This document shows, piece by piece, positions 1,463 to 61,155 of a DNA stretch of 64,000 bases. A program made the position numbers and the translations under genes. This stretch comes from a virus. The stretch spans positions 1-64,000 of IMG/VR virus record IMGVR_UViG_3300024513_000016; one strand, 5' to 3'. How positions within the stretch are numbered: the first letter of the stretch is position 1; every line of letters starts with the position of its first letter. The notes beneath the pieces were generated by a model. The model had not been told where the DNA came from and did no database searches. It saw nothing but the letters and a program-made list of their open reading frames with translations.

Positions 1463-2161
1463 TTATTTAGGTTTAGTCCATCCTTTATGTTGTTTTTGTT
1501 TTCCACATAAAACTCTACGAATACAACTATAATTTAAATTATTTTCAATACAAAATTTAGTAAGATTAACTTCTTCTACTATATTTCCATCTGGACTAAT
1601 AATTTTAAATTTCTTCCAAAAATGTGGTTTGGATTTTCCTTTATGTAAATCACTTAACTTTTTTCTAGTTTCTTCAGTAAAAACTTGATTTGCTCTCTTT
1701 TCTTTTATTTTTCGTTTTGCTTCTTCGGTATGCTTTATTCCAGTTCTTCCTTTTTTTATTTTTTCTATAACTTCTGGGGGTCTCTTTTTACCTATTAATG
1801 CTTTACTTATTTTCAATTTTGTTTCATCAGTAAATTTTTGAAGTGCTCTTTTTTCTTTAATTTTTTGTTTAGTTTCTTCACTCATATTACAGACACCATC
1901 ACCACCATTAGTTTTGTTCTGTAAAATTCCCATTCCCAAATCTTTCCTTCCATAAACAGAAATCATATAAATCTCGTGCTTATAGGCATTTTCTGCTGTA
2001 ATATTCTTTTTAAGAAAAATTATTCTAGATTTATCTTTCGGGGGCTTAATATCTGTTGCTTTTCTTTTATGTATTCTATTCCCACTACCTTTACCTATGT
2101 AGTAAGGTGTTCTATCTTCACGCAAATATGCATAGGTATAAAATCGGTTAGGATTTACCAT
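1463..2161 (-). CDS. Free-standing GIY-YIG homing endonuclease with NUMOD3-like DNA-binding repeats
   Basis: FYTYAYLR..YYIGKG..R, catalytic E in AYKHE, N in LQNKTNGG; repeated (S/T)EET(K/R)xK(I/L) motifs. ATG at 2161 preferred over TTG at 2185. Confidence 0.9.
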   Translation of the reverse strand: MVNPNRFYTYAYLREDRTPYYIGKGSGNRIHKRKATDIKPPKDKSRIIFLKKNITAENAYKHEIYMISVYGRKDLGMGILQNKTNGGDGVCNMSEETKQKIKEKRALQKFTDETKLKISKALIGKKRPPEVIEKIKKGRTGIKHTEEAKRKIKEKRANQVFTEETRKKLSDLHKGKSKPHFWKKFKIISPDGNIVEEVNLTKFCIENNLNYSCIRRVLCGKQKQHKGWTKPK

Positions 2162-2172
2162 TTCTACTCTTA

Positions 2173-2248
2173 AATTGGTTCGCAATAGTATTTATACAAG
2201 AAAAGGAGCATTTCTGCTCCTCCTCTACCTTAAAGATGCGAACCAATT
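2173..2248 (-). promoter_or_regulatory. Endonuclease control region: 12-bp inverted repeat enclosing a terminator hairpin and TATAAATA late promoter
   Basis: AATTGGTTCGCA (2173-2184) / TGCGAACCAATT (2237-2248); GGAGCA-GAAA-TGCTCC-TTTTCTT (2198-2220, minus); TATAAATA (2189-2196, minus). Confidence 0.75.
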
Positions 2249-2257
2249 AAGGCATTA

Positions 2258-3109
2258 CTATTTATCAACTGCTCCAGTCATTAGTCCCGTTTTGTTGCTC
2301 TTATCACTGCTTCTCTTGCCAAACACTTTCTTATAAAGTTTTGCTCTCTTTGCTACTCCAGTCTTTTGATCTTCACCAGACATCACTGCTGTTGGTTTTC
2401 CAACTACAGTCTCACCTTTCTTTGCACCTGCTCTCTTGAGATGCTTTGGAGTATCTTTTAGTGCTTGAATAAAGTTTCTACCTCTTTCCATTTGATTATC
2501 TGGGTCACCTTTTCCGACATCACTATCACGGTGCATAATATCTACAGTATGAACTGGACCTCTCTTATTAGCACCTGATTTAGAGATTTGCTTTTTCAAA
2601 TCCTTTACTCTTCTTACACTTTCACTTGAAGGTGCAGTTTTCAATCTAGTCATTCCAGTTGGAGTTTTTCCTGCTGTTTTGAACTTACGGATTAACTGTT
2701 CTCCCTTTGCTGCTTTTCTTGCTGATGCGTGAGTACGAATGTAATGATCCTGCTCGGTGCTGCCATAATCATCTTCAGTATCTTCACTATCATAAGTTGT
2801 GTAGTCTTTTGCTTTGGTTCTCAAATCTTTGGTGGAATACTTACCAGTTCCTTTGAGTCCTGCTTTCTTTGCAATCGCAGCAGTAGATCTTTCTTGCCTT
2901 GTCATATCAGCACCACGACCACGAGCAAGAGTTACCTTGCCTCGTGTTCTTCTACCACTTCTTTCACCAGTTGAACTCTCTTCAAGTTCTTCAATATCTT
3001 CTTTCACACAACGATTATAAGTCTTCCCAAAGAGTTTTTGTGTCCCTTTCTTCTTATAACCAGGCCAGCACTTTTTTGCTTCAGAAATAAATTCCTGATA
3101 TGTCTTCAT
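2258..3109 (-). CDS. Basic putative internal head protein with T4-type capsid-targeting leader
   Basis: Starts MKTYQEFISEA (T4 IPIII leader is MKTYQEFIAE); CWPGY...NRCVKE mini-module; very K/R-rich. Confidence 0.7.
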   Translation of the reverse strand: MKTYQEFISEAKKCWPGYKKKGTQKLFGKTYNRCVKEDIEELEESSTGERSGRRTRGKVTLARGRGADMTRQERSTAAIAKKAGLKGTGKYSTKDLRTKAKDYTTYDSEDTEDDYGSTEQDHYIRTHASARKAAKGEQLIRKFKTAGKTPTGMTRLKTAPSSESVRRVKDLKKQISKSGANKRGPVHTVDIMHRDSDVGKGDPDNQMERGRNFIQALKDTPKHLKRAGAKKGETVVGKPTAVMSGEDQKTGVAKRAKLYKKVFGKRSSDKSNKTGLMTGAVDK

Positions 3110-3579
3110 TGTCCACCACCCATTGAACGTGATCTTTGTGCTCTCTTCAATGCAACTTTATATTCTGGGGATGGACCTGAACCAATAGGTCTTTCTCCTT
3201 TTTCTCTCTTTGCTCTTTCTATTTTTTGTTGTTCCAACTTACCAACACCTCTCTTTCTTCCAGGTGCTTCTGCACCACTTCCACCACCTCCATGTGCATG
3301 TCTCTTATAAGTTCCAAGAACTTCATAACGAGAAGCATAGGGATTAGTTGCAGTGTCAATCATCCCTTGTTTAGTTCTACCTAATGATGCTTCACGAGAT
3401 ACAGTTTTCTTTTCTGACTTTTTTAATTTCCACTTTGTATCACTACCTTCAGGTTGTCTTTCAACTCTAGCAGACTTTACAGTTGTATAAAGAGGAGTCT
3501 TTTTCTTTCCAGCAACTTTATCTTCTTTACGCATTTCGTAAAGATGTGCTTCTTCTAGAAACTCTTTAAAGGTCTTCAT
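3106..3579 (-). CDS. Basic putative internal head protein with capsid-targeting-like leader
   Basis: Starts MKTFKEFLEEAHLYE; K/R-rich; ATAAATA at 3600-3606. Confidence 0.65.
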   Translation of the reverse strand: MKTFKEFLEEAHLYEMRKEDKVAGKKKTPLYTTVKSARVERQPEGSDTKWKLKKSEKKTVSREASLGRTKQGMIDTATNPYASRYEVLGTYKRHAHGGGGSGAEAPGRKRGVGKLEQQKIERAKREKGERPIGSGPSPEYKVALKRAQRSRSMGGGQ

Positions 3580-3606
3580 CTTTTTATAACTTTTATTTTT
3601 ATTTAT

Positions 3607-4626
3607 CTAGGATTTTGCTTTTGCTTTTTTCTTTTGTCTTCTCACTGCTGCAGAAAGAAGTTCTTTATGAGGAATTGAACCAGAAACAATATCTTTTGTT
3701 TTTGATTCTATTTCATGTGCTCCACCCTTTCTATGATAAATTCCAGGTTTATCTGAAGGATCAGTAGATCTCTTAGCACCCATTATATTTCTTGGATGAT
3801 GTCCATGATAAACCCCTTGCGAAGCATCTTTTTTTACTCGTTCTTTCCACTCTGCATCACTCATAGATGACTTCAATTTTGAAGAATAATGTAGTGGAGT
3901 AATATGATGTGCTTCTAATCCTTTAGACTTCAATTTTCTTATTTTAGTATCTGCAGTTCTTCTTTCTTCACTCGAACTTAAATTTTCAATTCTTTCTTTT
4001 CTTCTTCCTCTTTCACCTACACCTCCAGATTTAGGTTTAAGTCTCCATTTTGGATTTTCAGTGCTGCCAGCATTATTAGCATAATAACCTGATGGAATCC
4101 CACCATGATGTTTTTCTAATTCAGATCTACTTGAAAAATATCTCTGTGCTTCAATTAAATATACTTCTTCAAAAAACTCTTTAAATGTTTTTTTCTTATT
4201 TCCCCAATTCTTTGCTCCTACTTTTCTACACTTAACTAATGCTCCAGAAGCATAAGCACTTGGCCATACACTATAACGAGATTTTACTTTATGATAACAT
4301 GCATCTTTTTCTTCAGTTGCAACCATTTTTGCTTTCCCTCTCTTATTTGGGTCTGGATCTTGACGATTCTTACGTTCAAAAGCTTTCTGCTCTTCTTCAT
4401 CAGAAAGTGCTGCTTTCATCTTGCTAGAACCACACTTCGGTTTTGTAGTTTGTCCTGGTTGTTTTGCACAAGGTTTTCCTGCATATCTTCCACCCAACTG
4501 AACCCAACCAGGTTTACCATCTGATGACTTACTTTTAGTAAACCAATCATGAAGAGAATAATCTCCAGATTTTCTACCTTCATAGATATTATCAAAATCT
4601 AAAAAAAACTCTCTAAAACCTTTCAT
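3607..4626 (-). CDS. Putative internal head protein fused to a C-terminal HNH-like domain
   Basis: MKGFREFF start; modules SLHDWF..GWV..PCA and KDACYHKVKSRY.VWPSAYASGALVKCRK; internal KKTFKEFFEEVYLIEA; then EAHHITP...HHPRN...YH...H; CTAAATA at 4646-4652. Confidence 0.6.
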   Translation of the reverse strand: MKGFREFFLDFDNIYEGRKSGDYSLHDWFTKSKSSDGKPGWVQLGGRYAGKPCAKQPGQTTKPKCGSSKMKAALSDEEEQKAFERKNRQDPDPNKRGKAKMVATEEKDACYHKVKSRYSVWPSAYASGALVKCRKVGAKNWGNKKKTFKEFFEEVYLIEAQRYFSSRSELEKHHGGIPSGYYANNAGSTENPKWRLKPKSGGVGERGRRKERIENLSSSEERRTADTKIRKLKSKGLEAHHITPLHYSSKLKSSMSDAEWKERVKKDASQGVYHGHHPRNIMGAKRSTDPSDKPGIYHRKGGAHEIESKTKDIVSGSIPHKELLSAAVRRQKKKAKAKS

Positions 4627-4648
4627 ATTCTAATATCTTTTAAAATAT

Positions 4649-4813
4649 TTAGTAATTTGTAGGTTTTTCTTGATTTGAATAATCTCCTTTTCCAACAAGG
4701 GACTGGACAAATAATTCAGTAAATTTTTCCATTTTATCTGGATGTACTGATGCTGGATTGTATGAAATTGCATCCTTAAGTGCTACAAGTTCTTCCCAAT
4801 CGTTGTTTTTCAT
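4649..4813 (-). CDS. Small hypothetical protein (54 aa, MKNNDWEELVALKDAISYNPASVHP...), not in ORF track
   Basis: Translated by hand; fills the intergenic gap; CTAAATA at 4844-4850. Confidence 0.65.
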   Translation of the reverse strand: MKNNDWEELVALKDAISYNPASVHPDKMEKFTELFVQSLVGKGDYSNQEKPTNY

Positions 4814-4913
4814 TTTTGTCAGGGTTTCAAAACATTCCTACTATATTTAGAACAAAATCATAGAAATTGCAAGGGTTTTAGAGGGGTTTAACAATCTCTA
4901 AAGATTTTAAAAA

Positions 4914-5228
4914 TCATTCAAAATTGATAATTTCTTGATTCTGATAAAATTCCCATAATGCATTATGTAAATTTGAGAGATCCATAATCCAAAATCCTTG
5001 GGGATAAATTCCTAATTCTTTCTGCAATTGTCTATGTGAACAACCAGATTTCTCTGCTTCACATGCGATTTCAATTACTGCTTGAACTGCAGAAAACCTA
5101 TCCTCATCTGATAGATTTTTATACCACTCTAAAGATTTTTCCCTACGTTCTTTTATCAAATTTTGCAAATTTTCTAGGTTTTTTTCAACCTTCTCTATAA
5201 CTTCAACTTTAGATTCAGAGTCCATCAT
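4914..5228 (-). CDS. Hypothetical protein
   Basis: ORF coupled to upstream gene. Confidence 0.7.
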   Translation of the reverse strand: MMDSESKVEVIEKVEKNLENLQNLIKERREKSLEWYKNLSDEDRFSAVQAVIEIACEAEKSGCSHRQLQKELGIYPQGFWIMDLSNLHNALWEFYQNQEIINFE

Positions 5229-8722: not shown

Positions 8723-8925
8723 TTAAGTTTAGAAAGTTCACGAATTTTGTAATAGTTTAACAGATCTTCTATAAATTCCAAAGAAACATTATAATATTCT
8801 GAGATCATTTCATTAGTCCAATTGGAAGAATTGACGAATTGTGCTAATTGTAATGGATCATAAGATTCAAAGGTCGTACTCTTTGTTCTTTTTCTGGTTT
8901 TTTTCGTGGAAGTTTTAAGTTTCAT
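8719..8925 (-). CDS. Hypothetical protein, possible HTH (likely start MKLKT at 8925)
   Basis: 3' part of track ORF 8719..9012; upstream part overlaps a better ORF. Confidence 0.55.
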   Translation of the reverse strand: MKLKTSTKKTRKRTKSTTFESYDPLQLAQFVNSSNWTNEMISEYYNVSLEFIEDLLNYYKIRELSKLK

Positions 8926-9070
8926 TGTGTGTGCTCTCTGTAAATAATGATTTGAAATACTGATTATAACGAAAAAATCGTGAAAGACTTGGGGTAACAC
9001 CAAGACTCTCACAACATCTTATATATGAGACAAATTCATACCAAGGTGCAGTCTCATCAGTATCAGTCAT
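8915..9070 (-). CDS. Small hypothetical protein (51 aa, MTDTDETAPWYEFVSYIRCCESLG...), not in ORF track
   Basis: Translated by hand; ATGA overlap with upstream gene. Confidence 0.7.
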   Translation of the reverse strand: MTDTDETAPWYEFVSYIRCCESLGVTPSLSRFFRYNQYFKSLFTESTHNET

Positions 9071-9279
9071 AGTTTTCCACCAACTACTCCTTCATATTTA
9101 ACAGTATTTTCAGACCACCCTTCTTGAATACCTTTTAGATAAAAACGAGTTGCATTTATACATTGTTCTTCAGTCAATGAAGTTACAATACATTTGCCTT
9201 CCTTATTATAAGAGTCCCAGGTTCCCCACTTCTTTTGTTCTACACGAAAACAATCATCAATCCAAGTATACTCTTCCAT
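9067..9279 (-). CDS. Hypothetical protein (conserved cyanophage type)
   Basis: WIDDCFRV...YEGVVGGKL. Confidence 0.75.
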   Translation of the reverse strand: MEEYTWIDDCFRVEQKKWGTWDSYNKEGKCIVTSLTEEQCINATRFYLKGIQEGWSENTVKYEGVVGGKL

Positions 9280-9443
9280 TAAATTACAACTCCATATTTT
9301 TCACGTAAGATCTTTTTATAAGGTAAACCTTCCTTTTTCAAATCTCTTACTAGTTTAAGTTTTTGATATAGTTGAACATTTCCTCCAACTCCAAGTGCAT
9401 AAAGAATTGTATCCAATTCTTTATCATCAATAGGTAAATCCAT
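9279..9443 (-). CDS. Small hypothetical protein (54 aa, MDLPIDDKEL...), not in ORF track
   Basis: Translated by hand; TAATG coupling. Confidence 0.7.
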   Translation of the reverse strand: MDLPIDDKELDTILYALGVGGNVQLYQKLKLVRDLKKEGLPYKKILREKYGVVI

Positions 9444-9448
9444 AAAAT

Positions 9449-9622
9449 TCAATCTTCAGAATCCAATCCTTCAATCATACTAACTGGAACTTCATTTCCT
9501 GCAATAGAGTAATAATGCTCACCTTCACGAATTCCAAGATATTGAAGATCGGAAAAAGTATGCTCTCTAAGGAGTGCCTGAAGTTGTAGATGCATTAATT
9601 CATTTTTGCTTGGCACTTTCAC
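9449..9622 (-). CDS. Hypothetical protein (likely GTG start near 9622)
   Basis: 3' part of track ORF 9449..9706. Confidence 0.6.
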   Translation of the reverse strand: MKVPSKNELMHLQLQALLREHTFSDLQYLGIREGEHYYSIAGNEVPVSMIEGLDSED

Positions 9623-9722
9623 TATTTTGTTTCTCTTGGTTTTGAATAAATTTTTTAAGTTCGGGAGTTTCTTCCCAAATCCAAACCGTTCCGTTTTTTT
9701 GTTCAAATGTTTTAGTTGCCAT
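9600..9722 (-). CDS. Small hypothetical protein (40 aa, MATKTFEQKNGTVWIWEETPELK...)
   Basis: Translated by hand; TAATG coupling. Confidence 0.55.
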   Translation of the reverse strand: MATKTFEQKNGTVWIWEETPELKKFIQNQEKQNSESAKQK

Positions 9723-9874
9723 TAGACATAATCTCCTACAATAAATTCTTCTTCAGTTACTTTACCATTTTCTATAAGATTTTCAATCATTTCCCAATAA
9801 ATCAGTGCTTGATCTTCATCTCCTTCAAACAATGCCTCTTTACGAAGTTCAATCAATTTGAGATAATCACTCAT
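9722..9874 (-). CDS. Small acidic hypothetical protein (50 aa)
   Basis: Translated by hand; GAGG before ATG. Confidence 0.6.
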   Translation of the reverse strand: MSDYLKLIELRKEALFEGDEDQALIYWEMIENLIENGKVTEEEFIVGDYV

Positions 9875-10085
9875 CCTCTAATTTAAGAAAACAGACACTA
9901 TTAAATTTACCATTCACTCCTTTTAAAGTCAATTTTGTATGATAAGAATGAACTTCAATTTTTTCTACAATATAAGTATTATTTTTAATTAGAATCCCAT
10001 TTGGGTCATCATTATTTCCCCAATTAATTTGTTCCTTTAAACATCCAATAAAGACTACAATATCTCCCTCAATAATCTTCTTCAT
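9867..10085 (-). CDS. Hypothetical protein
   Basis: ORF in operon. Confidence 0.7.
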   Translation of the reverse strand: MKKIIEGDIVVFIGCLKEQINWGNNDDPNGILIKNNTYIVEKIEVHSYHTKLTLKGVNGKFNSVCFLKLEDE

Positions 10086-10356
10086 CTATAATTTCCCATT
10101 CTAAATCATAGTTAATTGCTTCAATATATTCTCTTACTGCTTCAATTGGATTTTCCATATAAATTCCAGATCCAATATCACTTATATGCTCAGCAACATC
10201 AGAAAGATTTACTAAAGCATAGCATACTGCTGGACCATATTCGTCAGGTTCAAATCTAGTTTGCCTATGTGTCAAAACCATGTCTTCGACAATTGCCTTT
10301 ACATAAGCAGTCTCATAATTTTCAAGACTTACTTCAAGAATTTCTACGTTAGACAT
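10069..10356 (-). CDS. Acidic hypothetical protein
   Basis: D/E-rich ORF. Confidence 0.7.
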   Translation of the reverse strand: MSNVEILEVSLENYETAYVKAIVEDMVLTHRQTRFEPDEYGPAVCYALVNLSDVAEHISDIGSGIYMENPIEAVREYIEAINYDLEWEIIDEEDY

Positions 10357-10360
10357 AAAC

Positions 10361-10669
10361 TCACATTACAATTTTTGTAGTCTCACCTGGACAAACATCT
10401 GGTGTTTCTAGATTCTGAAACATTAAATGTGGTCCATGATAATAAATGTAAACATCACTTAAATCTTCCATGGTAAGATTAGGATATTTCTTCAAAACAT
10501 CCTTCTGACTTAATCCTGAATTTGCAAGATTTGCTATAGTTTTTACTAAAACTTCAGTTCCACGAATGCATGGTTTTCCACCACAACGATTTTTTTGAAT
10601 CGTGATCCGAGGACACAAATAGGATACAGGATACTCTTTAGTAAATTCAAATTCCATTTTCATCTTCAC
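10361..10669 (-). CDS. DUF433-domain (antitoxin-like wHTH) protein
   Basis: RITIQKNRCGGKPCIRGT.V.V..I.....SG.S...VL..YP.LT.EDL. Confidence 0.85.
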   Translation of the reverse strand: MKMKMEFEFTKEYPVSYLCPRITIQKNRCGGKPCIRGTEVLVKTIANLANSGLSQKDVLKKYPNLTMEDLSDVYIYYHGPHLMFQNLETPDVCPGETTKIVM

Positions 10670-10940
10670 TCAAATCTTCATTGTAAAATTCCTTGGTATA
10701 AAATTCACATCCATCGTAGAAAGATTTTTCACAATATCCAACTGCTAGTACATATGACTTAAAAAGATTAAACAATTGCCAAATAGTCATGTCATCATCA
10801 TTGGATGTAATTGTTACATTCTGATCACGCAGACTTCCCTCATAAATTTTAAGTGGAGGGTTATCATTCTTATAAATGTAAGAAAATGTGTGTGTAACTG
10901 ATGTATCGAAATTCATAGATCTCCTTTTATCTATAACCAT
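10647..10940 (-). CDS. Hypothetical protein
   Basis: ORF; real start probably the ATG at 10916 after AGGAG. Confidence 0.65.
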   Translation of the reverse strand: MVIDKRRSMNFDTSVTHTFSYIYKNDNPPLKIYEGSLRDQNVTITSNDDDMTIWQLFNLFKSYVLAVGYCEKSFYDGCEFYTKEFYNEDLSEDENGI

Positions 10941-10967
10941 TATACGACGTTATGGGTGACATCTCAA
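10939..10967 (-). promoter_or_regulatory. Sigma70-type early promoter
   Basis: TTGAGA-17 nt-TATAAT. Confidence 0.7.
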
Positions 10968-10968
10968 G

Positions 10969-11208
10969 TCACTTTGTGCCAGAGTCTGGATCGTCCACCT
11001 TACCATAAGACATCATTTTAAGATGCTTTTGATATGAAATTTTTTTGTATCTTTTCGCAATAGGATCAGGAATCCAATGGACTTCAACATAATCTGCACG
11101 TTGAAGTTTCATGAATTCTTCTAAAGTTGAATGAAAAAATCCAAGTTGAACATTTCCATCATGAGTTATCAATGTAGTTTCACTGGTGCGAACAACATAT
11201 AAAGTCAA
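10969..11208 (-). CDS. Hypothetical protein
   Basis: ORF in operon. Confidence 0.6.
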   Translation of the reverse strand: MTLYVVRTSETTLITHDGNVQLGFFHSTLEEFMKLQRADYVEVHWIPDPIAKRYKKISYQKHLKMMSYGKVDDPDSGTK

Positions 11209-11435
11209 TCTTCAAATTCCTTTCTCAGTTGCTTTGCAATTTTAGCATATTCCCACCTTTTGATCAAATTTGTAATGGGGTTTTTAGGATGAAATCTTAT
11301 CATCCAGTAAAATCTTTTTGTATTTACTTCTAAAAGTTTATACAACAAAATTACATACTTTGCAACACTTTCATCTGTTGCTATAAAGTATGCAATTACA
11401 GAAAATATTGACAACCATACGTAATATGTGGTCAT
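11205..11435 (-). CDS. Small membrane protein
   Basis: Hydrophobic N-terminus. Confidence 0.7.
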   Translation of the reverse strand: MTTYYVWLSIFSVIAYFIATDESVAKYVILLYKLLEVNTKRFYWMIRFHPKNPITNLIKRWEYAKIAKQLRKEFED

Positions 11436-11436
11436 A

Positions 11437-11631
11437 TTATTTTTTTAAATTGTCTATTATATATTGAAATTTTTTTGCCTTTGATTTATGATCAGAAGCA
11501 AATTCATTTAAGATATCTAATATATCGTCTAAAACAACTTCTGGAGAAATCTCGTCGTCAAAATACTTTTGTATTGCTTCAGACAAGTAACGTTTTCTAC
11601 TCCATTCTATTGTATAAGGTTTGTAGTCCAT
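11437..11631 (-). CDS. Hypothetical protein (conserved cyanophage type)
   Basis: YKPY..EW.R.RYL.EAI..YFD; directly behind a promoter. Confidence 0.75.
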   Translation of the reverse strand: MDYKPYTIEWSRKRYLSEAIQKYFDDEISPEVVLDDILDILNEFASDHKSKAKKFQYIIDNLKK

Positions 11632-11653
11632 TCTAAAAAGTCATATAGTTCAA

Positions 11654-11682
11654 ACTATAGAATATCTATTTTTCGTTGTCAA
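11654..11682 (-). promoter_or_regulatory. Sigma70-type early promoter
   Basis: TTGACA-17 nt-TATAGT. Confidence 0.75.
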
Positions 11683-11812
11683 GTTCTTTTAAATAATCCG
11701 TCCACCATTTTGGATCTTTCTGACACTTCCAGTTGGGAACTTCCTTTCCCATCTCAAAATACCATTCCCATATTGCTTGATCAATAATATCTGCGACTTC
11801 AATCTTCCTCAT
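11666..11812 (-). CDS. Small hypothetical protein (likely start MRKIEVA)
   Basis: 3' part of track ORF 11666..11902; Trp-rich. Confidence 0.6.
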   Translation of the reverse strand: MRKIEVADIIDQAIWEWYFEMGKEVPNWKCQKDPKWWTDYLKELDNEK

Positions 11813-11990
11813 CCTCTTTATCAACATCTGCATATGCTCCCTCCACGTAAGGTCCGTGTTCTCGTTTGGCATCTTCTCTGACATAATTGATCTCCGAAGC
11901 ACTAGAGGACAACCATAAAGATACTTTCATAATCACATAAATGATTGCAAGGGGGAGAAAACATAGTGAAAGGATGATAGTATTTTTCAT
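11799..11990 (-). CDS. Small membrane protein with acidic tail
   Basis: N-terminal TM helix; ATGA overlap. Confidence 0.7.
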   Translation of the reverse strand: MKNTIILSLCFLPLAIIYVIMKVSLWLSSSASEINYVREDAKREHGPYVEGAYADVDKEDEED

Positions 11991-12187
11991 TGATTTTTTC
12001 TGTCATATTGATGCCATTTACACCAACCATCTGGTGAGATTTTACCACTTACTGCAGTGCAAGCATTTGGAGGTCTCCACATGTTACAATTGGAACATTT
12101 TTCATTTCCTTTTGGTTCATTTTGATATTTTGCAATCGATTTAGATGCTTTTTCTTCCTCGAAAAGAAATTCTTTAAATGTTTTCAT
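11987..12187 (-). CDS. High-potential iron-sulfur protein (HiPIP) domain with capsid-targeting-like leader
   Basis: YQxxPKG-x3-C31xxC34-x8-C43-xxVxGxISPxGW-C56: four cluster cysteines and conserved Y/W; N-terminus MKTFKEFLFEEE in place of a Tat signal. Confidence 0.8.
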   Translation of the reverse strand: MKTFKEFLFEEEKASKSIAKYQNEPKGNEKCSNCNMWRPPNACTAVSGKISPDGWCKWHQYDRKNQ

Positions 12188-12405
12188 TCATCAATTTCCC
12201 AACATTTTTCGAATTTATATCTTAGTTCGTTAAGTTTCATTTCTTCCCAATACTTTAACAGATGTTGATTTATTTCCTTCTCCTGCTCACTAAACTCTAA
12301 TCGATATTTATGTTTAATATTTATTAAATGTGCCATATCATCCAAAAAAGTAGTTGGCATATCCAAAAACTCTTCATAATCCATCTTTAATCTCTTTGAC
12401 GCCAA
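12184..12405 (-). CDS. Hypothetical protein
   Basis: ORF in operon. Confidence 0.65.
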   Translation of the reverse strand: MASKRLKMDYEEFLDMPTTFLDDMAHLINIKHKYRLEFSEQEKEINQHLLKYWEEMKLNELRYKFEKCWEIDE

Positions 12406-12707
12406 TCATCGGGTTTATCTTCCGTCCACCAATCTATCATATCATCAATATCATCAAATCCTCTTTTTCCAAATCTTTCGTGCCCTAATCCACCAATATC
12501 AAGTTGATTCAAAAAATCATCCATATCACCTTCTTGCATATCAGGATTTTCTGCCTTTCTCCTAGCCTGACGAAGTATAGTAGAAGCAGAACGATTTGAT
12601 TTTGCAAGTTTTTCGGCCCAAATCATGTCCTCTAAACTTACTTCTTGATGTAAAGCAATCTTTTTACAAATTGCTTCAAGACGAAGACGATATTGTGTAG
12701 ATAGCAT
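12387..12707 (-). CDS. Conserved cyanophage hypothetical protein
   Basis: MLSTQYRLRLEAIC...WAEKLAK; CTAAATA at 12729-12735. Confidence 0.8.
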   Translation of the reverse strand: MLSTQYRLRLEAICKKIALHQEVSLEDMIWAEKLAKSNRSASTILRQARRKAENPDMQEGDMDDFLNQLDIGGLGHERFGKRGFDDIDDMIDWWTEDKPDDWRQRD

Positions 12708-12739
12708 AAATTACTCCAGATATAGGGTTATTTAGATTA

Positions 12740-12940
12740 TCAAACAAATTTACGAATAGTTTTCAAATAGTCTAAAACATTTTCCCTAATTTCCATAAAT
12801 TCATTATAACATTTTTGATCATGTGAACATTGACGAAGTTCCTGATCTGGTTTTAATACAGATTCCACAAAGAGATCCAAACCTCTGTTCCATTTTATGT
12901 CTTTAGATTCTTCACTATAACTTAATTGTTGATTGTTCAT
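12740..12940 (-). CDS. Conserved cyanophage hypothetical protein
   Basis: KWNRGLDLFVESVLKPD.ELRQC.H.Q.CY. Confidence 0.75.
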   Translation of the reverse strand: MNNQQLSYSEESKDIKWNRGLDLFVESVLKPDQELRQCSHDQKCYNEFMEIRENVLDYLKTIRKFV

Positions 12941-13101
12941 CTTTTTTCAATCCTAATGGGACAAGATGGAATAGTTTTCTTTACTTCCAAAACAATTTCA
13001 TTTTTTTGTTGTTCGGTAAGACCTACTATTTTTTGCAACCTATTGATAATACTAAGTGCCTGAGTACAGGAAATCACGGTTGTAGAAATTAATACAACCA
13101 T
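12937..13101 (-). CDS. Small hypothetical protein (54 aa), not in ORF track
   Basis: Translated by hand; ATGA overlap. Confidence 0.65.
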   Translation of the reverse strand: MVVLISTTVISCTQALSIINRLQKIVGLTEQQKNEIVLEVKKTIPSCPIRIEKR

Positions 13102-13135
13102 AACTTTCGATATATACTGTTAATATTTAACAATG

Positions 13136-13312
13136 TCACCAACTATCCTTTTCTTTTTTTCTAAGTGATTTTAATTCTTGATATAAAGACTTAACCTGTT
13201 GATGTGCATCTTCTGGACTTAATTTTCCAGAAATTTCGAGTCCTGCTATAATAGCAACACGATCGCCAAAATTTGCAAGTGCTATTTCATATGGGGAAAG
13301 TTCTTTATACAT
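13136..13312 (-). CDS. Small hypothetical protein (58 aa, MYKELSPYEIALANFGDRV...), not in ORF track
   Basis: Translated by hand. Confidence 0.7.
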   Translation of the reverse strand: MYKELSPYEIALANFGDRVAIIAGLEISGKLSPEDAHQQVKSLYQELKSLRKKEKDSW

Positions 13313-13314
13313 TT

Positions 13315-13518
13315 TTAAAATCCTTTTTTTGTTGATTTATCGTGAACAGTGATAATATCTAAAAAATCTGGAATTCTGCAATTTTCAAACCAAAAATTTC
13401 TTACATCTTCATAATAATCAAACTTCTTTGTTGTATTATTTTTTAATAATACTTTATAATAATGTCTATCATAAAGACCATCCGAAGTTTGAGAAAACAA
13501 ACTTGGTAAATTAACCAT
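13315..13518 (-). CDS. Hypothetical protein
   Basis: Coupled ORF ending KKGF. Confidence 0.7.
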   Translation of the reverse strand: MVNLPSLFSQTSDGLYDRHYYKVLLKNNTTKKFDYYEDVRNFWFENCRIPDFLDIITVHDKSTKKGF

Positions 13519-13754
13519 TATGCAACCAAAAGCAAATCATCAGACCAAACTGGAATAAACGAATTCCAATCCAATTCTTTATCTTCAAGATAATAGCACA
13601 GTTCATCCTCATCTTCAGGAAGTTGTTCAGAATTCAAAAGAAAGAAGTCTGAAATTCCCAATGTTTGTTTCCCATCTTCATCTTCAATGGTAGCAACCAC
13701 TTCTACATGATTTTTAATTTGACGAACAGTTTCAATAAGATTCACGTAAATCAT
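13518..13754 (-). CDS. Acidic hypothetical protein
   Basis: Coupled ORF. Confidence 0.7.
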   Translation of the reverse strand: MIYVNLIETVRQIKNHVEVVATIEDEDGKQTLGISDFFLLNSEQLPEDEDELCYYLEDKELDWNSFIPVWSDDLLLVA

Positions 13755-13951
13755 TTTTTAGTTTTCCTCTGTTGTTTGGCAATAAAGTTTTTTGCAGATT
13801 GTAGATTATTAGCTGTATGGACTTGATATCCATTATTAATAATCACATATTTAGTGTTACCATATGGAATTGCAGCCCACATTCCATCTCTAGTTACATA
13901 AGAAGAATAAGGTTCTGGTTCTTCCAAAGGTCTAAATGCAACAATGGTCAT
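13751..13951 (-). CDS. Hypothetical protein
   Basis: Coupled ORF, DGMWAAIPYG. Confidence 0.7.
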   Translation of the reverse strand: MTIVAFRPLEEPEPYSSYVTRDGMWAAIPYGNTKYVIINNGYQVHTANNLQSAKNFIAKQQRKTKK

Positions 13952-14088
13952 CGAGAGTAATCATCGAAATCAAGATCAAAGTATAGTTCTTCCAAGTCTT
14001 CGGTGTCAATTCCCAAATAACTTGCAAATTCATCCAGATCCTTGTTTTTAATTTCGGTTAAAATTTCTTGCTCTAACTGGTTGTTCAT
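13948..14088 (-). CDS. Small acidic protein (46 aa), not in ORF track
   Basis: Translated by hand: MNNQLEQEILTEIKNKDLDEFASYLGIDTEDLEELYFDLDFDDYSR. Confidence 0.65.
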   Translation of the reverse strand: MNNQLEQEILTEIKNKDLDEFASYLGIDTEDLEELYFDLDFDDYSR

Positions 14089-14103
14089 GAGACATTTTCT
14101 CCA

Positions 14104-14253
14104 TTAGTATCCATATCTGGAGATCATATCATCCATTCGATCATTATCACGATATTCATCTTCGAAGTCTTCAAGATCTTCACTGCTTTCATTTACGAAA
14201 AGTTCTTCGTAAATTGTATCTGAATCTTTTTCTAGATAGATTTTTGAAGTCAT
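14104..14253 (-). CDS. Small highly acidic protein (49 aa, likely start MTSKIY)
   Basis: First ORF behind the promoter at 14319-14347. Confidence 0.65.
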   Translation of the reverse strand: MTSKIYLEKDSDTIYEELFVNESSEDLEDFEDEYRDNDRMDDMISRYGY

Positions 14254-14318
14254 AAGAAGAAAGAAGGGTACAAGTTTATATAGTAGACACAATCACAGTT
14301 TTATGGTTGTGTCTTAAT

Positions 14319-14347
14319 ATCTTAACGATTGTATTCTCATATGTCAA
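14319..14347 (-). promoter_or_regulatory. Sigma70-type early promoter with 5' leader hairpin
   Basis: TTGACA-17 nt-TAAGAT; AGACACAA...TTGTGTCT inverted repeat at 14285-14314. Confidence 0.7.
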
Positions 14348-14412
14348 GATAAAAACCAAGATACCCCCCGTATGAAAAAATTAAAATAGTATATCAATAT
14401 TTTATTGCCTTA

Positions 14413-14682
14413 TCACTCTGCAGCAGGCCAAATGTCCTCAGCAAGTTTTGCTTCGCCAGTTGTAATTGCAGATTGTAGATCTGAAATATCTTCTCCAGAA
14501 TTAACAATTTCTTCATCAGAAACAACAAGTTTCAGATGCCCAACATTACGTTCAATATTAGATTTTAATTCTTTAGAAGGTGTTTTTCCCCCATCTAATT
14601 TTGCAATAGTATCTTCAATCACCCAAACACTATCTCTAGCTGCAGTAATTGTTCGTAAAATTTGTTCTTGAGTTCTTTCCAT
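14413..14682 (-). CDS. Small helical hypothetical protein, last gene of the glycan cassette
   Basis: ORF abutting the sulfotransferase. Confidence 0.75.
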   Translation of the reverse strand: MERTQEQILRTITAARDSVWVIEDTIAKLDGGKTPSKELKSNIERNVGHLKLVVSDEEIVNSGEDISDLQSAITTGEAKLAEDIWPAAE

Positions 14683-14683
14683 T

Positions 14684-15598
14684 TTAAGATCCTATAAAGT
14701 TACTAGACTCTTCTGAGTCTTGATTGTTTATATTTATATTTATATTAACTTCACTATTTTTATCTAATTCAAGATCTCTCCAAAATTCAAGACCTTTACA
14801 TCTTGATAAAATACTTTCCGAGAGTACTTCTTCTGGAGGTAAAGAAGTTTTTTTCAATTCTTTTCTGACTTGATGCATATCACTCAAACCATAAGTAGCA
14901 GCATCATTCTCATTATTGATATTAATGAGATTATTGAATTCGTGTTCATAATATTCTTCATCGAGAAACTCATAAATTTCTTTCATCGTTTCTTCTGGAG
15001 AATTAACAAGATTATCGTATTCAACAAAATGTAAATATTTTTCTTGTCCTTTCATTAATACATTTCTAATTCCCAAATAACTTTGTCCAAGAATTCCAGA
15101 TTCACTAACAAGAAATTCACATCGATTATCATCTGTTAATGGAATATTAGATTTAATCAACATCTCATCAATAAAATTTATTTTTCCATTTACTTCATAT
15201 GGATTGCGATGATGTATCGAAATAAAAGATGCTAAAATTTCATCAATATTTCTAACGGGGCAAATAATCTTTGGTGTAATTCCTAAGTAACCTTCGATAT
15301 AATGAATTCGATTGACCCAAGATCTATTTTTATCAAAAATTACTGGTTTTTCTACATCATAATAATACTGTTGAATGATATTAGAAATAATCATCGATGC
15401 TTGTTCTGGTTTTGGATATGCCAAAAACAATTCATCCTGAGACAATTGTTGTTCTAGCATAGCCATTAACCCAGTTACAGGAGAACTGGGTCCAGAATAA
15501 AATCTTGGATTTTGATTTAAAATACTAGATAAAATTGTGCTTCCCGAACGAGGAAGTCCTGCCATAAAATAATATGTTTTTTGCATGGGTTCTGTCAT
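14684..15598 (-). CDS. PAPS-dependent sulfotransferase
   Basis: 5'-PSB loop GLPRSGST.LSSIL, FDKNR.W, 3'-PB motif PVRN..EILAS, VEYDNLV..P. Confidence 0.9.
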   Translation of the reverse strand: MTEPMQKTYYFMAGLPRSGSTILSSILNQNPRFYSGPSSPVTGLMAMLEQQLSQDELFLAYPKPEQASMIISNIIQQYYYDVEKPVIFDKNRSWVNRIHYIEGYLGITPKIICPVRNIDEILASFISIHHRNPYEVNGKINFIDEMLIKSNIPLTDDNRCEFLVSESGILGQSYLGIRNVLMKGQEKYLHFVEYDNLVNSPEETMKEIYEFLDEEYYEHEFNNLININNENDAATYGLSDMHQVRKELKKTSLPPEEVLSESILSRCKGLEFWRDLELDKNSEVNINININNQDSEESSNFIGS

Positions 15599-15607
15599 GG
15601 TGTTAAT

Positions 15608-16510
15608 TTACTGAGCATCAACGGATTTAACAATTTCATGGAAATCGAATAGTTCTATCCCTTCTTCGTAGGGATACTCAACTTCATTACCATTAAAATC
15701 AAAATCAAAAAGATAACTTCCTGGCAATTTAAAATCATATGGTACTGTTGTGCAGATATTGTGGTGAATATCATATCCAAATACTTTTGGACTAGTCCCA
15801 TTCCACAAAACTGTCGATGATTTATTTAGGGCAGCAGATGCATGTTGCACACAGGAATCAATTAAGATTCTTTTTTTTGCATGGAGGACAATACTAAAAT
15901 ACTCCATTAAACTTAATGAGTTTTCTGGTGTTGCAAAAATATGTTCTGCACCCTCTAACTTTGGAGAATTAATTTTTGTAAGTTGAATAATATGATATTC
16001 TGATTTGTAATAATCCGCAAGTCTTTCTGCGAGATCAAATGGCATATCTCTTGTCCAGGAATATGGTTTTGCATCGGCAGTCATGAGTCCACCATTAGTG
16101 TGGATAATCATGACTGGTTTTTCTCTCTGCCAAAATTCCTTTGATATACTATGTTGAAGTTTATTAAATCTTATTTCTGGTTTTTCTCCAGAATATTTGA
16201 TGCCATACAAATCACACCAATTCTCGATTAAACGTTTGCGTTTGTGAATATGGTTAGTTGTATAATATGGTTCATTATGGAATAAAATAGAATCTTTATC
16301 TTGAATATATTCTTGATAAAAATATTGCGTCGATCCTAGAGTATAAACTCTATGAACATACGGAAGATTTATAAAAATATCCGCATATGCACAGACTACA
16401 ACTAGTTTTCTATCTGGATGGTTTGCTTTAATTGCTTTTGCTACTGCAGTTGCTGCAATGTGCTTACCAATGCCACCTTGAACATGAAAAATACTATACT
16501 TTGATTTCAT
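15608..16510 (-). CDS. GT-B fold glycosyltransferase (GT9/heptosyltransferase-like)
   Basis: GGIGKHIAATA..KAIK..HP; LIDSC.QHA.AAL...STVLW..T.P. Confidence 0.75.
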   Translation of the reverse strand: MKSKYSIFHVQGGIGKHIAATAVAKAIKANHPDRKLVVVCAYADIFINLPYVHRVYTLGSTQYFYQEYIQDKDSILFHNEPYYTTNHIHKRKRLIENWCDLYGIKYSGEKPEIRFNKLQHSISKEFWQREKPVMIIHTNGGLMTADAKPYSWTRDMPFDLAERLADYYKSEYHIIQLTKINSPKLEGAEHIFATPENSLSLMEYFSIVLHAKKRILIDSCVQHASAALNKSSTVLWNGTSPKVFGYDIHHNICTTVPYDFKLPGSYLFDFDFNGNEVEYPYEEGIELFDFHEIVKSVDAQ

Positions 16511-58096: not shown

Positions 58097-58648
58097 TCAA
58101 ATCATTTTCAAGAATTTTTTAAGATTACTTAAAGCACTTAGTATCGATCCAACAAATGATCCTTGTGTTACATCTGAGAATGACGCACTAGATACTTGAA
58201 CATTTGCTGCCATATCTACAGTTTGCCCATACATACCAATTTCATTTGTAGCCGTAATATCGACATTTGTTCCTTTCGTTCTAACAATAGGAGCATTAAA
58301 TTCTATGATTTTACCGGACCCCAGAGTAATCTCACCACTACCATCTGTAGCAACAATTCTTATATTTCTTGCACGAATTATAATATCTCCAGCAGGGGCA
58401 TCTAAATAAATATCACCATTTTTTGCGTATATGACTTTCGCAGGTTCATCATCTACACATTTTGATCCAACAACTTCTATGGAAGTTTTAGGATTTGCCT
58501 CCACCCTATTTCCGTCTTCTCTAAGTTGAATCGAACTTCCACTATCAGTAGTTACTGCCCATTCATATGTTGCTTCTTTGTTAGTAACATTATCATAAAT
58601 CTTATGTGCAATATTTGTATCTATATTTTGCCTTTCGCTTTTACTCAT
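58097..58648 (-). CDS. Baseplate hub/spike beta-helix protein (gp5 C-terminal-like)
   Basis: A.NGDI.L.AP.G.I.I.A.NI.I.A short beta repeats directly after the gp5-like gene. Confidence 0.6.
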   Translation of the reverse strand: MSKSERQNIDTNIAHKIYDNVTNKEATYEWAVTTDSGSSIQLREDGNRVEANPKTSIEVVGSKCVDDEPAKVIYAKNGDIYLDAPAGDIIIRARNIRIVATDGSGEITLGSGKIIEFNAPIVRTKGTNVDITATNEIGMYGQTVDMAANVQVSSASFSDVTQGSFVGSILSALSNLKKFLKMI

Positions 58649-61155
58649 ACGCAGTCAACAACCGTAAGTATTCCAACTTGATTAATAATAACTCTTGGGA
58701 GAATTGATAGTTGAGGCAGATATTCCAGAACTGGATATAAATCTGCACCTTCACCATTTTGACTATTTATAATCGCATTAGGAAGTGCATCAAAAATATT
58801 AGCACAAGTAATAGATTGAATTCCAACAATAGATCCATTAGGAGTAACAATAGGGGTAAATGTACAAAGACCTACTTGAATGACATCCCCTGTCGAATAT
58901 CCAATTCCAGGATTTTCTACGACAATTGATGTTATAATTCCAACAATATCAGTTCCAACTCCAGGTCCAGGTGGTATGACATTATCAAATATTTCTTTTG
59001 GAAATGTTCCAACTCCAGTTGAAACTGGAGTTCCAGGTGGAGTTTGAATAGGATCGTCCGGAATTGGAGTAAGTATTGGAGATAGTCTATTTGATATGTT
59101 TACTATGGTCCTTGCTACAATAACACCAGAGGTATCTTGTAAATCAAAGAACATCTGTTCTACAGATTCTTGTATACTATCTTGACGTATTTTAACTTTA
59201 ACTTGTGCAGTATTTGATTTTATTGTCACACTTCCATTCATACTTCCTTCTATATCATTAGAAGTAATATCTCCACCCAACATATAAGATAAAGATGTAT
59301 TATCTTTAACATTTTGAGTAAAAATAGTATAAGTTACAGTTTCACCTTCAAAAAAAGTATATCTATCTGCAGTAACCAAATATGAAGGAATATCAAACTC
59401 TGAACTTAAATCTGGTGGACAATATCCTGTTCCAGATCGAGTTAGATATATTTGCGTAATTCTTCCTCTAGAAATAGATGCAGATGCTTTTGCACCAGAA
59501 CCGTGATTTGTTTTATCTACTATTGAAATTCTAGGTGGTTTACTGTATCCAAATCCAGAATTAATAATTTTTACAGAAATTATGCTTCCATCTTTTGAAA
59601 CAATTGGAACTGCCTTTGCCCCAGATCCATCTCCAAATATTTCTATCTTAGGTGGAACACAATATGGATATACTTTTCCTGTATCAGTCAAATCATCTTG
59701 ACCCTTTGGAGTTTTTACTTTTTTGGTACAATCTCTAAATACAGAACCTTCATATCCATATAATGATAAAGAACCTAATGCATTATCAATATTATCATTT
59801 ACACCTTTGAGGACATTCATATTCCCCAAAACATTATTCCAATTATCAATCCCTGCTCGTTTAGGTCCAAACTTTAATGACCATTCAGATGGGGTTTTAC
59901 ATTTTAAACTATCACAACCAATAAAATTAAGAATTTGATTTGCAATTGAAGATACTTGAGATAAAATTCCTTTAATTTGAGATAATCCACCAAGTAACCA
60001 ATCAAGTCCAGACATTACTGGTTCTAAAAGTTCTTCAATTTTATCCATTAATTTAGAAAGAATTGCTGAAGTAAATTGTTCAGCAGCACAAAGTGGTGCA
60101 TTGATAGCTCTACCTACCAATCCCTTAAGCATATCTAAAAGAAAATCTAAAAGCAAATCTATAAGTTTCTCAAAGATACAAAATATAATATTCATTATAT
60201 TTTTAGTTGCTTCTGCAACTGGAGTATGTTGAGGTAAGGGTAAAACTAATGCAATAAATTTTCCAAACAAATCACCTACCAATTTCATTATGGTAGATCT
60301 AAAATTATTAATAATAAATTTAATTACTCCTGTAATTATTCTTGCAGTTCTTTTAATTTCATTAGTAATATCAATTATTGTATTTAAAACTGGATCTACA
60401 TAAGCATCAATATATCCTTCCAATCCATTAACTATTGTAATAAAATCTTGAATTGCCCTTGTAATCTTTCCAATTATATTATTATCACAACCATTTTCTT
60501 TTGTAATGGTAATACTACCTACTTCTTTTTGAATTATATCAAGTTGTTTATCAACATAAAATATTTTATCCTTACCAGAGTTCCTATCCGAACCTAGATC
60601 TACAGAAATTGGATTTTCAATTTTACCACCAATAATAGTGGGAGGAGATTCTTCTTCTTTAGCATCTCCCTGTTTAGGGTCAACAGTTGGTTGTATTTTT
60701 GTCTGGCCTTGTGCAACTGTTGATCCTAATGTGGTATCATTTCCTTCAAATGGTTGAAATGCTATATCAGATTCAGGAAATGATTTTACATTTTTATCTC
60801 TATGAATTACTCCAATTACTACTGGTTGTTGGGAATCATCACCATCTAGGAAAAATCCAAAAACAGTTTCTCCTCCAACTAATTTATGACTTTTACCTAA
60901 TCCACCTTGAGCACTACCATCAGTAGCACCAAGCATTATTTGTGCCCAAGGTAGATCTTTATCTGGAAGTTCTTTTTTATTATAGGTATGATATCCAATT
61001 ATTCTAACCTTACATCGATATGCCCAAGATCCACCAGTAACTATATCAACCTTTTCTGGTATATCCCATACCTTTGCAGGAGCAACCTGACCTATCCACC
61101 AAATAAAACCATCTTTTCCAAGATAGTTACTTTTTAATAAAGCATCATCAATCAT
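58645..61155 (-). CDS. T4 gp5-like baseplate hub subunit (OB-fold N-terminus), no lysozyme domain seen
   Basis: GF.WWIGQV...R.KVRI.GYH...LPWA...G..VFGFFLDG...Q.PV.IG. Confidence 0.85.
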   Translation of the reverse strand: MIDDALLKSNYLGKDGFIWWIGQVAPAKVWDIPEKVDIVTGGSWAYRCKVRIIGYHTYNKKELPDKDLPWAQIMLGATDGSAQGGLGKSHKLVGGETVFGFFLDGDDSQQPVVIGVIHRDKNVKSFPESDIAFQPFEGNDTTLGSTVAQGQTKIQPTVDPKQGDAKEEESPPTIIGGKIENPISVDLGSDRNSGKDKIFYVDKQLDIIQKEVGSITITKENGCDNNIIGKITRAIQDFITIVNGLEGYIDAYVDPVLNTIIDITNEIKRTARIITGVIKFIINNFRSTIMKLVGDLFGKFIALVLPLPQHTPVAEATKNIMNIIFCIFEKLIDLLLDFLLDMLKGLVGRAINAPLCAAEQFTSAILSKLMDKIEELLEPVMSGLDWLLGGLSQIKGILSQVSSIANQILNFIGCDSLKCKTPSEWSLKFGPKRAGIDNWNNVLGNMNVLKGVNDNIDNALGSLSLYGYEGSVFRDCTKKVKTPKGQDDLTDTGKVYPYCVPPKIEIFGDGSGAKAVPIVSKDGSIISVKIINSGFGYSKPPRISIVDKTNHGSGAKASASISRGRITQIYLTRSGTGYCPPDLSSEFDIPSYLVTADRYTFFEGETVTYTIFTQNVKDNTSLSYMLGGDITSNDIEGSMNGSVTIKSNTAQVKVKIRQDSIQESVEQMFFDLQDTSGVIVARTIVNISNRLSPILTPIPDDPIQTPPGTPVSTGVGTFPKEIFDNVIPPGPGVGTDIVGIITSIVVENPGIGYSTGDVIQVGLCTFTPIVTPNGSIVGIQSITCANIFDALPNAIINSQNGEGADLYPVLEYLPQLSILPRVIINQVGILTVVDCV

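Follow-up and report, generated by a model that had tools for sequence, protein, structure and literature searches.

The window analyzed here is a 64,000-nucleotide stretch of viral DNA (IMG/VR record IMGVR_UViG_3300024513_000016, positions 1 to 64,000), which corresponds to the minus strand of a viral contig in IMG/VR (86,447 bp, 33.7% G+C, estimated completeness 42%). On the minus strand of the window, at positions 11987-12187, an open reading frame (ORF) of 66 amino acids (aa) encodes a short leader followed by a domain of the HiPIP (high-potential iron-sulfur protein) type, and it is this gene, together with the other genes that share its leader, that is dealt with here. The ORF reads as described in the original prediction, which had been made from the letters of the window alone, including the four cysteines (C31, C34, C43, and C56) and the motifs YQxxP (residues 21-25) and ISPxGWC (50-56). 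Its ATG overlaps the stop codon of the upstream ORF (ATGA), and its own stop codon overlaps the next start. The gene is conserved in more than 80 viral loci found by IMG/VR scans and in 17 protein clusters, at 74-89% identity and with the reading frame intact, and DNA of this stretch is present in riverine metagenomes. Among cultured relatives, the nearest one with the gene is S-SRM01, a freshwater Synechococcus phage of the Kyanoviridae (240.8 kb), whose annotation calls the product hypothetical. Inside the window lies a module for a T4-type baseplate hub and tail fibers, and the remainder of the contig contains a photosystem II reaction-center gene, a transaldolase, and a 6-phosphogluconate dehydrogenase, called from their N-termini. 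We propose, with a probability of roughly 0.6, that the product of the HiPIP gene is the precursor form of a protein that sits inside the head of a T4-like freshwater cyanophage and is ejected from it; the HiPIP would thus probably be carried in the virion and injected with the DNA.

The Pfam HiPIP model (PF01355), with which the original prediction had proposed to check the protein, matched residues 14-57 above its cut-off (22.8 against 22 bits, E 1.2e-4), and a phmmer search of the PDB sequences returned PioC of Rhodopseudomonas palustris (6xyv; E 1e-10, residues 12-59), followed by other HiPIPs, with C31, C34, C43, and C56 aligned to Cys22, Cys25, Cys34, and Cys47 of PioC. These four are the cluster ligands of PioC, in which Trp46 and an aromatic residue at +3 shield the cluster, and the general rule for the HiPIP shield is a Trp at Cys4-1, an aromatic residue at Cys4+2 or +3, and a conserved N-terminal Tyr (PMC7462912). 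All of these positions are filled in the phage protein, by W55 before the fourth cysteine, W58 after it, and Y21. In an alignment of 121 relatives, Y21, C31, and V46 were invariant and C34, C43, C56, P25, P40, G48, G54, and W55 were conserved in at least 90%, and the near-invariance of the ligands, the Tyr, and the Trp suggests selection on the cluster environment beyond the fold. AlphaFold2, run on the same alignment, gave a model with a mean predicted local distance difference test (pLDDT) score of 86.8 (89-96 in the domain), in which the leader forms a detached low-confidence helix (residues 4-12; pLDDT of about 60 for residues 1-10). When this model was compared with the PDB by Foldseek, ranks 1-17 were all HiPIPs, the best being 1isu, with a root-mean-square deviation (rmsd) of 1.1 Å over 56 columns, while PioC was matched at 1.4 Å and 41% identity. 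The neighbors in the ESM Atlas were all-viral clusters automatically labeled as HiPIP-domain proteins. Among the NCBIfam models, the sole match was to the Iro iron-oxidase HiPIP and fell below threshold (43 bits, where the cut-off is 100), and the PHROGs search matched no family. A precomputed Pfam label carried by three close homologues (PF28414 on P0009, P0010, and P0015) may stand for a family newly set up for such viral proteins. By sequence and by modeling, then, residues 13-59 are a PioC-like HiPIP domain, and we infer from the conserved ligands and the fold that it binds a [4Fe-4S] cluster.

PioC of R. palustris TIE-1 (6XYV) is the smallest HiPIP known, and the resemblance extends over the whole 50-residue domain, including the cysteine spacing (C-x2-C-x8-C-x12-C), the Trp before the fourth cysteine and the aromatic residue after it, and the modeled fold. 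The two proteins differ in their address. While PioC has a signal for twin-arginine translocation (Tat) and has its place in the periplasm, where it links an iron oxidase to the reaction center (PMC7462912), the phage protein, encoded by a virus of cyanobacteria, begins with an acidic, amphipathic decapeptide (residues 1-12 have this character), and inspection of the 66-aa sequence revealed neither a twin-arginine motif nor a hydrophobic stretch, in agreement with the predicted lack of an export signal. A profile built from 18 close homologues and searched against 1.84 billion proteins found 2229 representatives at E <= 1e-3, comprising cellular HiPIPs with Tat signals (85-110 aa), bare forms (54-70 aa), leader-bearing forms, and fusions. 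Twin-arginine (RR) signals were carried by 53 relatives among those listed, and in the nearest cellular relatives these signals end at the position where the phage leader ends. A single-protein query (P0061) for leaderless short relatives in viral contigs gave no match. The maximum-likelihood tree of 148 HiPIP domains (50 columns) resolved little, with three starred branches; in it the signal-less forms grouped apart from most Tat forms, and the protein of the window fell in a group made up entirely of leader-bearing forms (SH-aLRT branch support of 93).

Fusions of the HiPIP domain to Phage_Mu_F, to GH19 and LysM (after a leader), or to NUDIX and DUF2213 were seen in other viral proteins, and the domain also occurs within proteins of more than 1000 aa headed by a nucleotidyltransferase motif; in the fused forms it is a small N-terminal module before enzymatic domains. 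The fusions come from jumbo T4-like viral contigs of 138-382 kb (P0035, P0059, P0066, P0043, P0092, and P0046/50/51; loci L022-L036), and they have in common a linker (G-R-I-V-K-G-V-N-T-T-V-D-V-G ...) and a C-terminal E-W-A-I-I-x-G-G-H motif. By analogy, these architectures resemble the polyvalent and MuF-linked proteins delivered from phage heads, described by Iyer et al. (2017, PMC5512222), in whose text neither a HiPIP nor an Fe-S domain is listed, and they offer independent, if soft, support for a role as cargo. The protein of the window is unlike the polyvalent proteins in being a single domain with a T4-type leader.

The N-terminus of the HiPIP ORF reads MKTFKEFLFE, and those of the T4 internal proteins IPII and IPIII, as read from NC_000866, both read MKTYQEFIAEA. 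In T4 the first ten residues are enough for encapsidation, and mutagenesis of this capsid-targeting sequence (CTS) assigned residues 4 and 7 to targeting and residues 8 and 10 to processing (PMC9026906). The HiPIP leader fits at each of these functional positions (F4, F7, L8, and E10, against Y4, F7, I8, and E10 in T4), and the prohead protease is predicted to cut it after E10, in the context L-F-E|E. Of 753 ORF candidates with an initial Met in the 86-kb contig, only three start M-K-T-[FY]-x-E-F, each of them a plausible gene: besides the HiPIP gene, they are those of a 157-aa and a 283-aa basic protein, which adjoin with a 4-nt overlap 8 kb from the HiPIP gene. The first eight residues of the former are identical to those of the HiPIP, and the first 11 of the latter match T4 IPII/IPIII at 10/11. 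Next to them, a very basic 339-aa protein has a looser N-terminal leader and a clean internal copy near residue 146, and looks like two fused leader-plus-cargo modules that are possibly separated by the prohead protease. The internal copy reads K-T-F-K-E-F-F-E-E, followed by L-I-E, and leader-like stretches in mid-protein were also seen in Syn9 gp114, P-RSM4_120, and the GC119 protein of S-P4. In S-SRM01, nine unrelated proteins begin M-K-[STN]-F-x-[QE]-F, among them several basic proteins encoded in tandem and one of 440 aa that resembles cytidylyltransferases, and a looser DNA pattern was met at nine gene starts on the coding strand, against none on the other strand and none for a reversed-pattern control. 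These counts, with those of the contig, argue that the leader is more than a chance resemblance. The four leaders of the contig use different synonymous codons and are preceded by unrelated DNA, which points to conservation at the peptide level. The idea that the shared leader is a recombination cassette acting at the DNA level was rejected on the same grounds.

The arrangement is like that of T4 IPI, IPII, and IPIII in several respects: cargo that is unrelated and for the most part basic, behind a template M-K-T-[YF]-x-E-F-[IL]-x-E; genomes with several cargo genes, partly arranged in tandem; late promoters (here, late-like motifs); and a phage lineage with a gp21 protease, a gp22 scaffold, and a gp23-like cleavage context. 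It is unlike them in that the known cargo of T4 and the T-even phages consists of DNA-associated basic proteins and the anti-restriction inhibitor IPI*, with no metal-cluster redox protein, and in that processing and ejection, demonstrated for T4, are predicted for the HiPIP phage.

The original prediction had also asked whether phage homologues keep the leader, and here the answer was divided. The window-type leader is present on the HiPIP at most of the more than 80 IMG/VR loci, among them L040, in which the gene lies directly 3' of two leader-bearing basic-protein genes. More distant HiPIPs have other leaders, and in each case unrelated genes nearby have the matching type. At locus L025 the HiPIP leader is MRLHDLFEEKG and four adjacent genes begin M-R-[LI]-x-[DE]-[LI], two of them with peptidoglycan-binding or tail-lysozyme domains; at L029 the HiPIP has its own M-I-K-F-K-K-Y-L type, as do four neighbors; and at L078 a third type is shared with three neighbors. 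A matrix of leader-versus-locus scores for 10 lineages fell into two blocks, with scores of 12-38 for neighbors of the same class and 2-16 for the other class. In L025 the five M-R-[LI]-x-[DE]-[LI] genes are consecutive (8811-16018; the HiPIP, two with PG_binding_1 or tail-lysozyme domains, and others), and from its sequence this run resembles a cassette for leader-tagged proteins, here in a phage not yet cultured. Judged by sequence comparison, the N-terminus of the HiPIP is a leader of the T4 CTS type, as had been predicted, and a lineage-specific address common to unrelated proteins.

The machinery that such a leader would serve was found in relatives. All four of the examined viral genomes that are at least 90% complete and carry a leader-HiPIP (246-382 kb) have a Peptidase_S77 protease (T4 gp21), and S-SRM01 has both a gp21-type protease and a gp22 scaffold. 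The maturation site of the capsid protein is conserved (S-F-L-T-E|A at Glu65 in T4, S-F-L-S-E|A in S-SRM01), and the cut context F-[LI]-x-E of the major capsid protein matches that of the leader. The predicted mature HiPIP has 56 residues, is basic, with an isoelectric point (pI) of about 9.0, and has no second [LI]-x-E site, as against 19 such sites in the S-SRM01 scaffold; it should therefore survive maturation. A complex prediction for the gp22 scaffold of genome G005 with the HiPIP precursor gave a score of 0.00, which speaks neither for nor against binding.

Proteins bearing the template are demonstrably present in cyanomyovirus particles, since 41 proteins were detected by mass spectrometry in purified S-SM1 virions and these include T4-GC119 (13 peptides, Table S8) and the core cytidylyltransferase T4-GC190 (Sullivan et al. 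2010). GC119 is the family of the 339-aa protein of the window (phrog_727; Syn9 gp114; P-RSM4_120), and the GC190 proteins of S-SM1, S-TIM4, S-SSM7, Bellamy, and S-SRM01 all start M-K-x-F-x-x-F-[LI]-x-E-A, the leader being present in every genome examined (loci L018, S-SRM01 165428-166747, and L117, Bellamy, among them). The annotated start of GC190 in Bellamy is seemingly 16 codons too far downstream, which removes the leader. The HiPIP phage is like the sources of these virion proteins in belonging with the Kyanoviridae, and GC190 and the freshwater relatives of GC119 bear the same template as the HiPIP; their folds are unrelated to it, and Sullivan et al. (2010) reported no N-terminal processing and no link to a targeting leader. 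Our literature searches found no paper linking GC119 or GC190 to a targeting sequence, none describing a CTS system in cyanophages, and nothing relevant on HiPIPs in phages, auxiliary metabolic genes, or polyvalent proteins, which agrees with the earlier statement that no example had been described.

The features of the window that bear on this account are collected in Table 1.

Table 1. Genes, protein segments, and late-promoter-like motifs around the HiPIP gene and the basic-protein genes (positions in the window)
Feature	Position	Strand	Basis or context
Pre-HiPIP gene, leader plus HiPIP domain, 66 aa	11987..12187	-	ORF, Pfam, phmmer, AlphaFold2, Foldseek
Capsid-targeting-type leader, codons 1-10	12158..12187	-	Compared with T4 IPII/IPIII from NC_000866
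HiPIP [4Fe-4S] domain (putative cluster), residues 13-59	12011..12151	-	Ligands C31/C34/C43/C56
63-aa ORF, phrog_2832, immediately 3' of the HiPIP gene	11799-11990	-	PHROG match
73-aa ORF between the phrog_507 and HiPIP genes	12184..12405	-	ORF list, spacing in relatives
phrog_507, 106 aa, conserved cyanophage gene, first in the string	12387..12707	-	PHROG match, relatives
CTAAATA, late-promoter-like heptamer	12729-12735	-	In a 32-nt intergenic gap, 21 nt before the phrog_507 start codon at 12707
ATAAATA, second late-like heptamer (CATAAATA context)	12305-12311	-	Inside the 73-aa ORF, 117 nt before the HiPIP start
339-aa very basic protein, pI 9.9, phrog_727 = T4-GC119 family	3607..4626	-	PHROG match, looser leader
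157-aa basic protein, pI 10.2	3106..3579	-	First eight residues as in the HiPIP
283-aa basic protein, pI 10.0	2258..3109	-	First 11 residues compared with T4 IPII/IPIII
Late-like motif	4646-4652	-	19 nt before the 339-aa gene
Late-like motif	3600-3606	-	20 nt before the 157-aa gene

The HiPIP gene is third in a string of overlapping genes (106 aa, 73 aa, HiPIP, and 63 aa). In most relatives it lies directly 3' of phrog_507, and the variable upstream spacing among relatives suggests that the 73-aa ORF is limited to a subgroup of them. In the phrog_2832 ORF a hydrophobic segment at the N-terminus precedes an acidic tail; the ORF encodes a small protein of membrane type and is coupled to the HiPIP gene in translation. 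Both late-promoter motifs named in the original prediction are present on the coding strand, the one inside the 73-aa ORF being the weaker candidate. Heptamers of the form [CA]TAAATA precede the large tail genes, at 16-31 nt from their starts, and in the whole window 35 were found against 56 expected from shuffles, 29 of them on the coding strand and six on the other; such rarity and strand bias are the pattern expected under selection against stray copies. Among 43 distinct relatives, about 36 have their nearest upstream heptamer 344-356 or 539-544 nt before the HiPIP start, which fits a site just before phrog_507, and the DNA directly upstream of the HiPIP start resembles the 3' end of that gene; at one locus (L064) a heptamer stands 16 nt before the HiPIP start itself.

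Metatranscriptomes were used as assembled contigs, for presence in RNA libraries only and not for ends, strand, or levels. The HiPIP gene was covered at 100% identity by contigs from four runs belonging to at least two studies. In one poly(A)-selected run, k-mer depths of 669 and 205 were found over the basic-protein genes (2220-4919), against 0-18 in neighboring regions, and this excess over the surroundings argues against a flat carry-over of DNA. Between the two deep contigs there is a break at about 3565-3594, beside the late-like motif of 3600-3606. An ORF of the homing-endonuclease type, with NUMOD3 and I-HmuI-like motifs (1463-2185, minus strand), comes immediately after the tandem basic-protein genes, and a mobile nuclease beside a variable cargo locus may help to shuffle it. 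Farther along the window, a 404-aa ORF (62708-63922, minus strand) has an M23-like metallo-endopeptidase or endolysin-type domain. It is placed two genes upstream of the gene for the gp5-like baseplate hub (58645-61155), with a tail-protein gene (61362-62708) in between, and its product may be a second virion-associated cell-wall enzyme.

Several observations weigh against a packaged HiPIP. The PF01355 score exceeds its cut-off by just 0.8 bits and is therefore marginal. Residue 11 is Glu, while the T4 internal proteins and the neighboring basic proteins have Ala after the cut, and the other leaders of S-SRM01 read F-Q-E instead of [LI]-x-E, which leaves the cleavage rules of the lineage unsettled. 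The contig is a fragment without head genes, so that the protease and scaffold of this phage are deduced from its relatives, and no virion proteome was found for this phage or for S-SRM01. Finally, the gene stands within a run of small ORFs of a kind usually transcribed early, downstream of strong sigma-70-like sites (14009-13980) and with no terminator between these sites and the gene, which makes additional early transcription possible, and the RNA contigs cannot prove transcription or its timing.

The genomic setting and the lack of a virion proteome would also suit a soluble cytoplasmic accessory protein, that is, an auxiliary metabolic protein that is never packaged and whose N-terminal helix serves stability, oligomerization, or the binding of a common partner. 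Cyanophages do carry metabolic genes for electron carriers, plastocyanin and PTOX being encoded near the GC119 locus in Syn9, P-RSM4, and S-P4, and leaderless relatives of 54-70 aa exist in the protein library. Plastocyanin (PetE), ferredoxin (PetF), and PTOX are, like the HiPIP, small redox proteins of T4-like cyanophages, and are thought to sustain or redirect host electron flow; they are, however, derived from the host, expressed in the infected cell, and keep their normal targeting, with nothing to suggest that they are virion cargo. A stabilizing or partner-binding helix would also have to fit the experimentally mapped targeting and processing positions of T4, to recur on late-promoter-driven basic proteins of a virion-detected family and on a virion-detected cytidylyltransferase, and to covary with its neighbors in lineages that all have a gp21-type protease, and the fusion of HiPIP domains to head-associated modules such as Mu F would be left aside. 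We therefore regard this explanation as unlikely, though it is the strongest competitor of a packaged HiPIP.

Less probable still is that the protein enters the head through its leader and is only a component of assembly or DNA condensation, the cluster being a structural staple or the protein being degraded or expelled before DNA packaging, with no redox role in the next host. The mature part is indeed basic, like the T4 internal proteins whose lysines contact DNA, 20-200 copies in a head would yield no more than a negligible stoichiometric redox effect, and the position of the domain as a small module ahead of enzymatic domains in the fusions would agree with a subordinate role. Nevertheless, a domain without the cleavage sites in which the scaffold abounds should outlast maturation, and in 121 relatives the four ligands and the shielding Tyr and Trp hardly vary, which suggests selection for more than a fold. 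That the ORF is not a real gene, or its likeness to HiPIPs a chance pattern of cysteines, might be argued from its shortness, the marginal Pfam score, and the missing PHROG match, but it is already effectively refuted by the conservation of the intact frame across the viral loci and protein clusters, by the 2229 profile relatives, which include Tat-signal HiPIPs, and by a fold search headed exclusively by HiPIPs.

We therefore favor a head-internal HiPIP, for which the following course may be envisaged. Given the ligands and the fold, the iron-sulfur machinery of the host would load a [4Fe-4S] cluster onto the PioC-like domain in the cytoplasm, and the ten-residue leader would then bring the protein into the core of the assembling prohead, as the T4 CTS does with IPI-III and with foreign fusions. 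A gp21-type prohead protease would cut the leader off after Glu10, leaving the compact, basic domain of 56 residues. By analogy with the T4 internal proteins, the mature protein would lie among the packed DNA and leave through the tail with it at infection. Of the original prediction of a packaged Fe-S protein with a capsid leader, the HiPIP domain and the shared T4-type leader were thus borne out, and packaging, cleavage, and the cluster are read from them. A wider version of this scheme, which we put forward tentatively and at somewhat less than even odds, is that cyanobacterial T4-like phages and their jumbo relatives load their heads, through lineage-specific leaders, with a varied arsenal of basic DNA-associated proteins, a cytidylyltransferase, cell-wall enzymes, and the HiPIP, and that the latter is ejected as an intact holo-protein, acts at the very start of infection, before phage gene expression, and is the first virion-delivered iron-sulfur redox protein known.

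To our knowledge, cyanobacteria do not use HiPIPs, and a HiPIP is no normal component of cyanobacterial photosynthesis. HiPIPs are also known for their stability in air. Together with the burial of their cluster behind aromatic residues (PMC7462912), this would suit a protein carried in an extracellular particle. Our leading guess for its role on arrival is that of an early-acting effector in one-electron redox, as a catalytic carrier, or in redox sensing, and the second guess, by analogy with IPI* in T4, is a cluster-stabilized binding module directed against a host defense. The original prediction had put forward an electron shuttle, a redox buffer, or an iron/sulfur payload; a stoichiometric payload of iron or electrons is unlikely, as CTS fusions in T4 are packaged at only 20-200 copies per head (PMC9026906).

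What is new here is a T4-type capsid cargo with a new class of passenger and, conversely, a HiPIP with a new address. A host meets the internal head proteins of a phage before any other of its molecules, and in T4 the contest with restriction systems is decided by them; beyond the T-even coliphages, knowledge of these proteins is very sparse. From the evidence, a T4-type loading tag seems to operate in cyanomyoviruses, which dominate ecologically, and in jumbo relatives not yet cultured, a metal-cluster electron carrier being an unexpected cargo, and because the cultured relative S-SRM01 has the same gene, the question of packaging is directly testable. If true, these findings would provide a sequence rule by which virion cargo could be predicted across the environmental T4-like genomes, which number thousands, would extend the repertoire of injected phage effectors to redox chemistry, and would represent a case in which a cleavable N-terminal address has been swapped, from a Tat signal to a capsid tag, on an otherwise unchanged domain.

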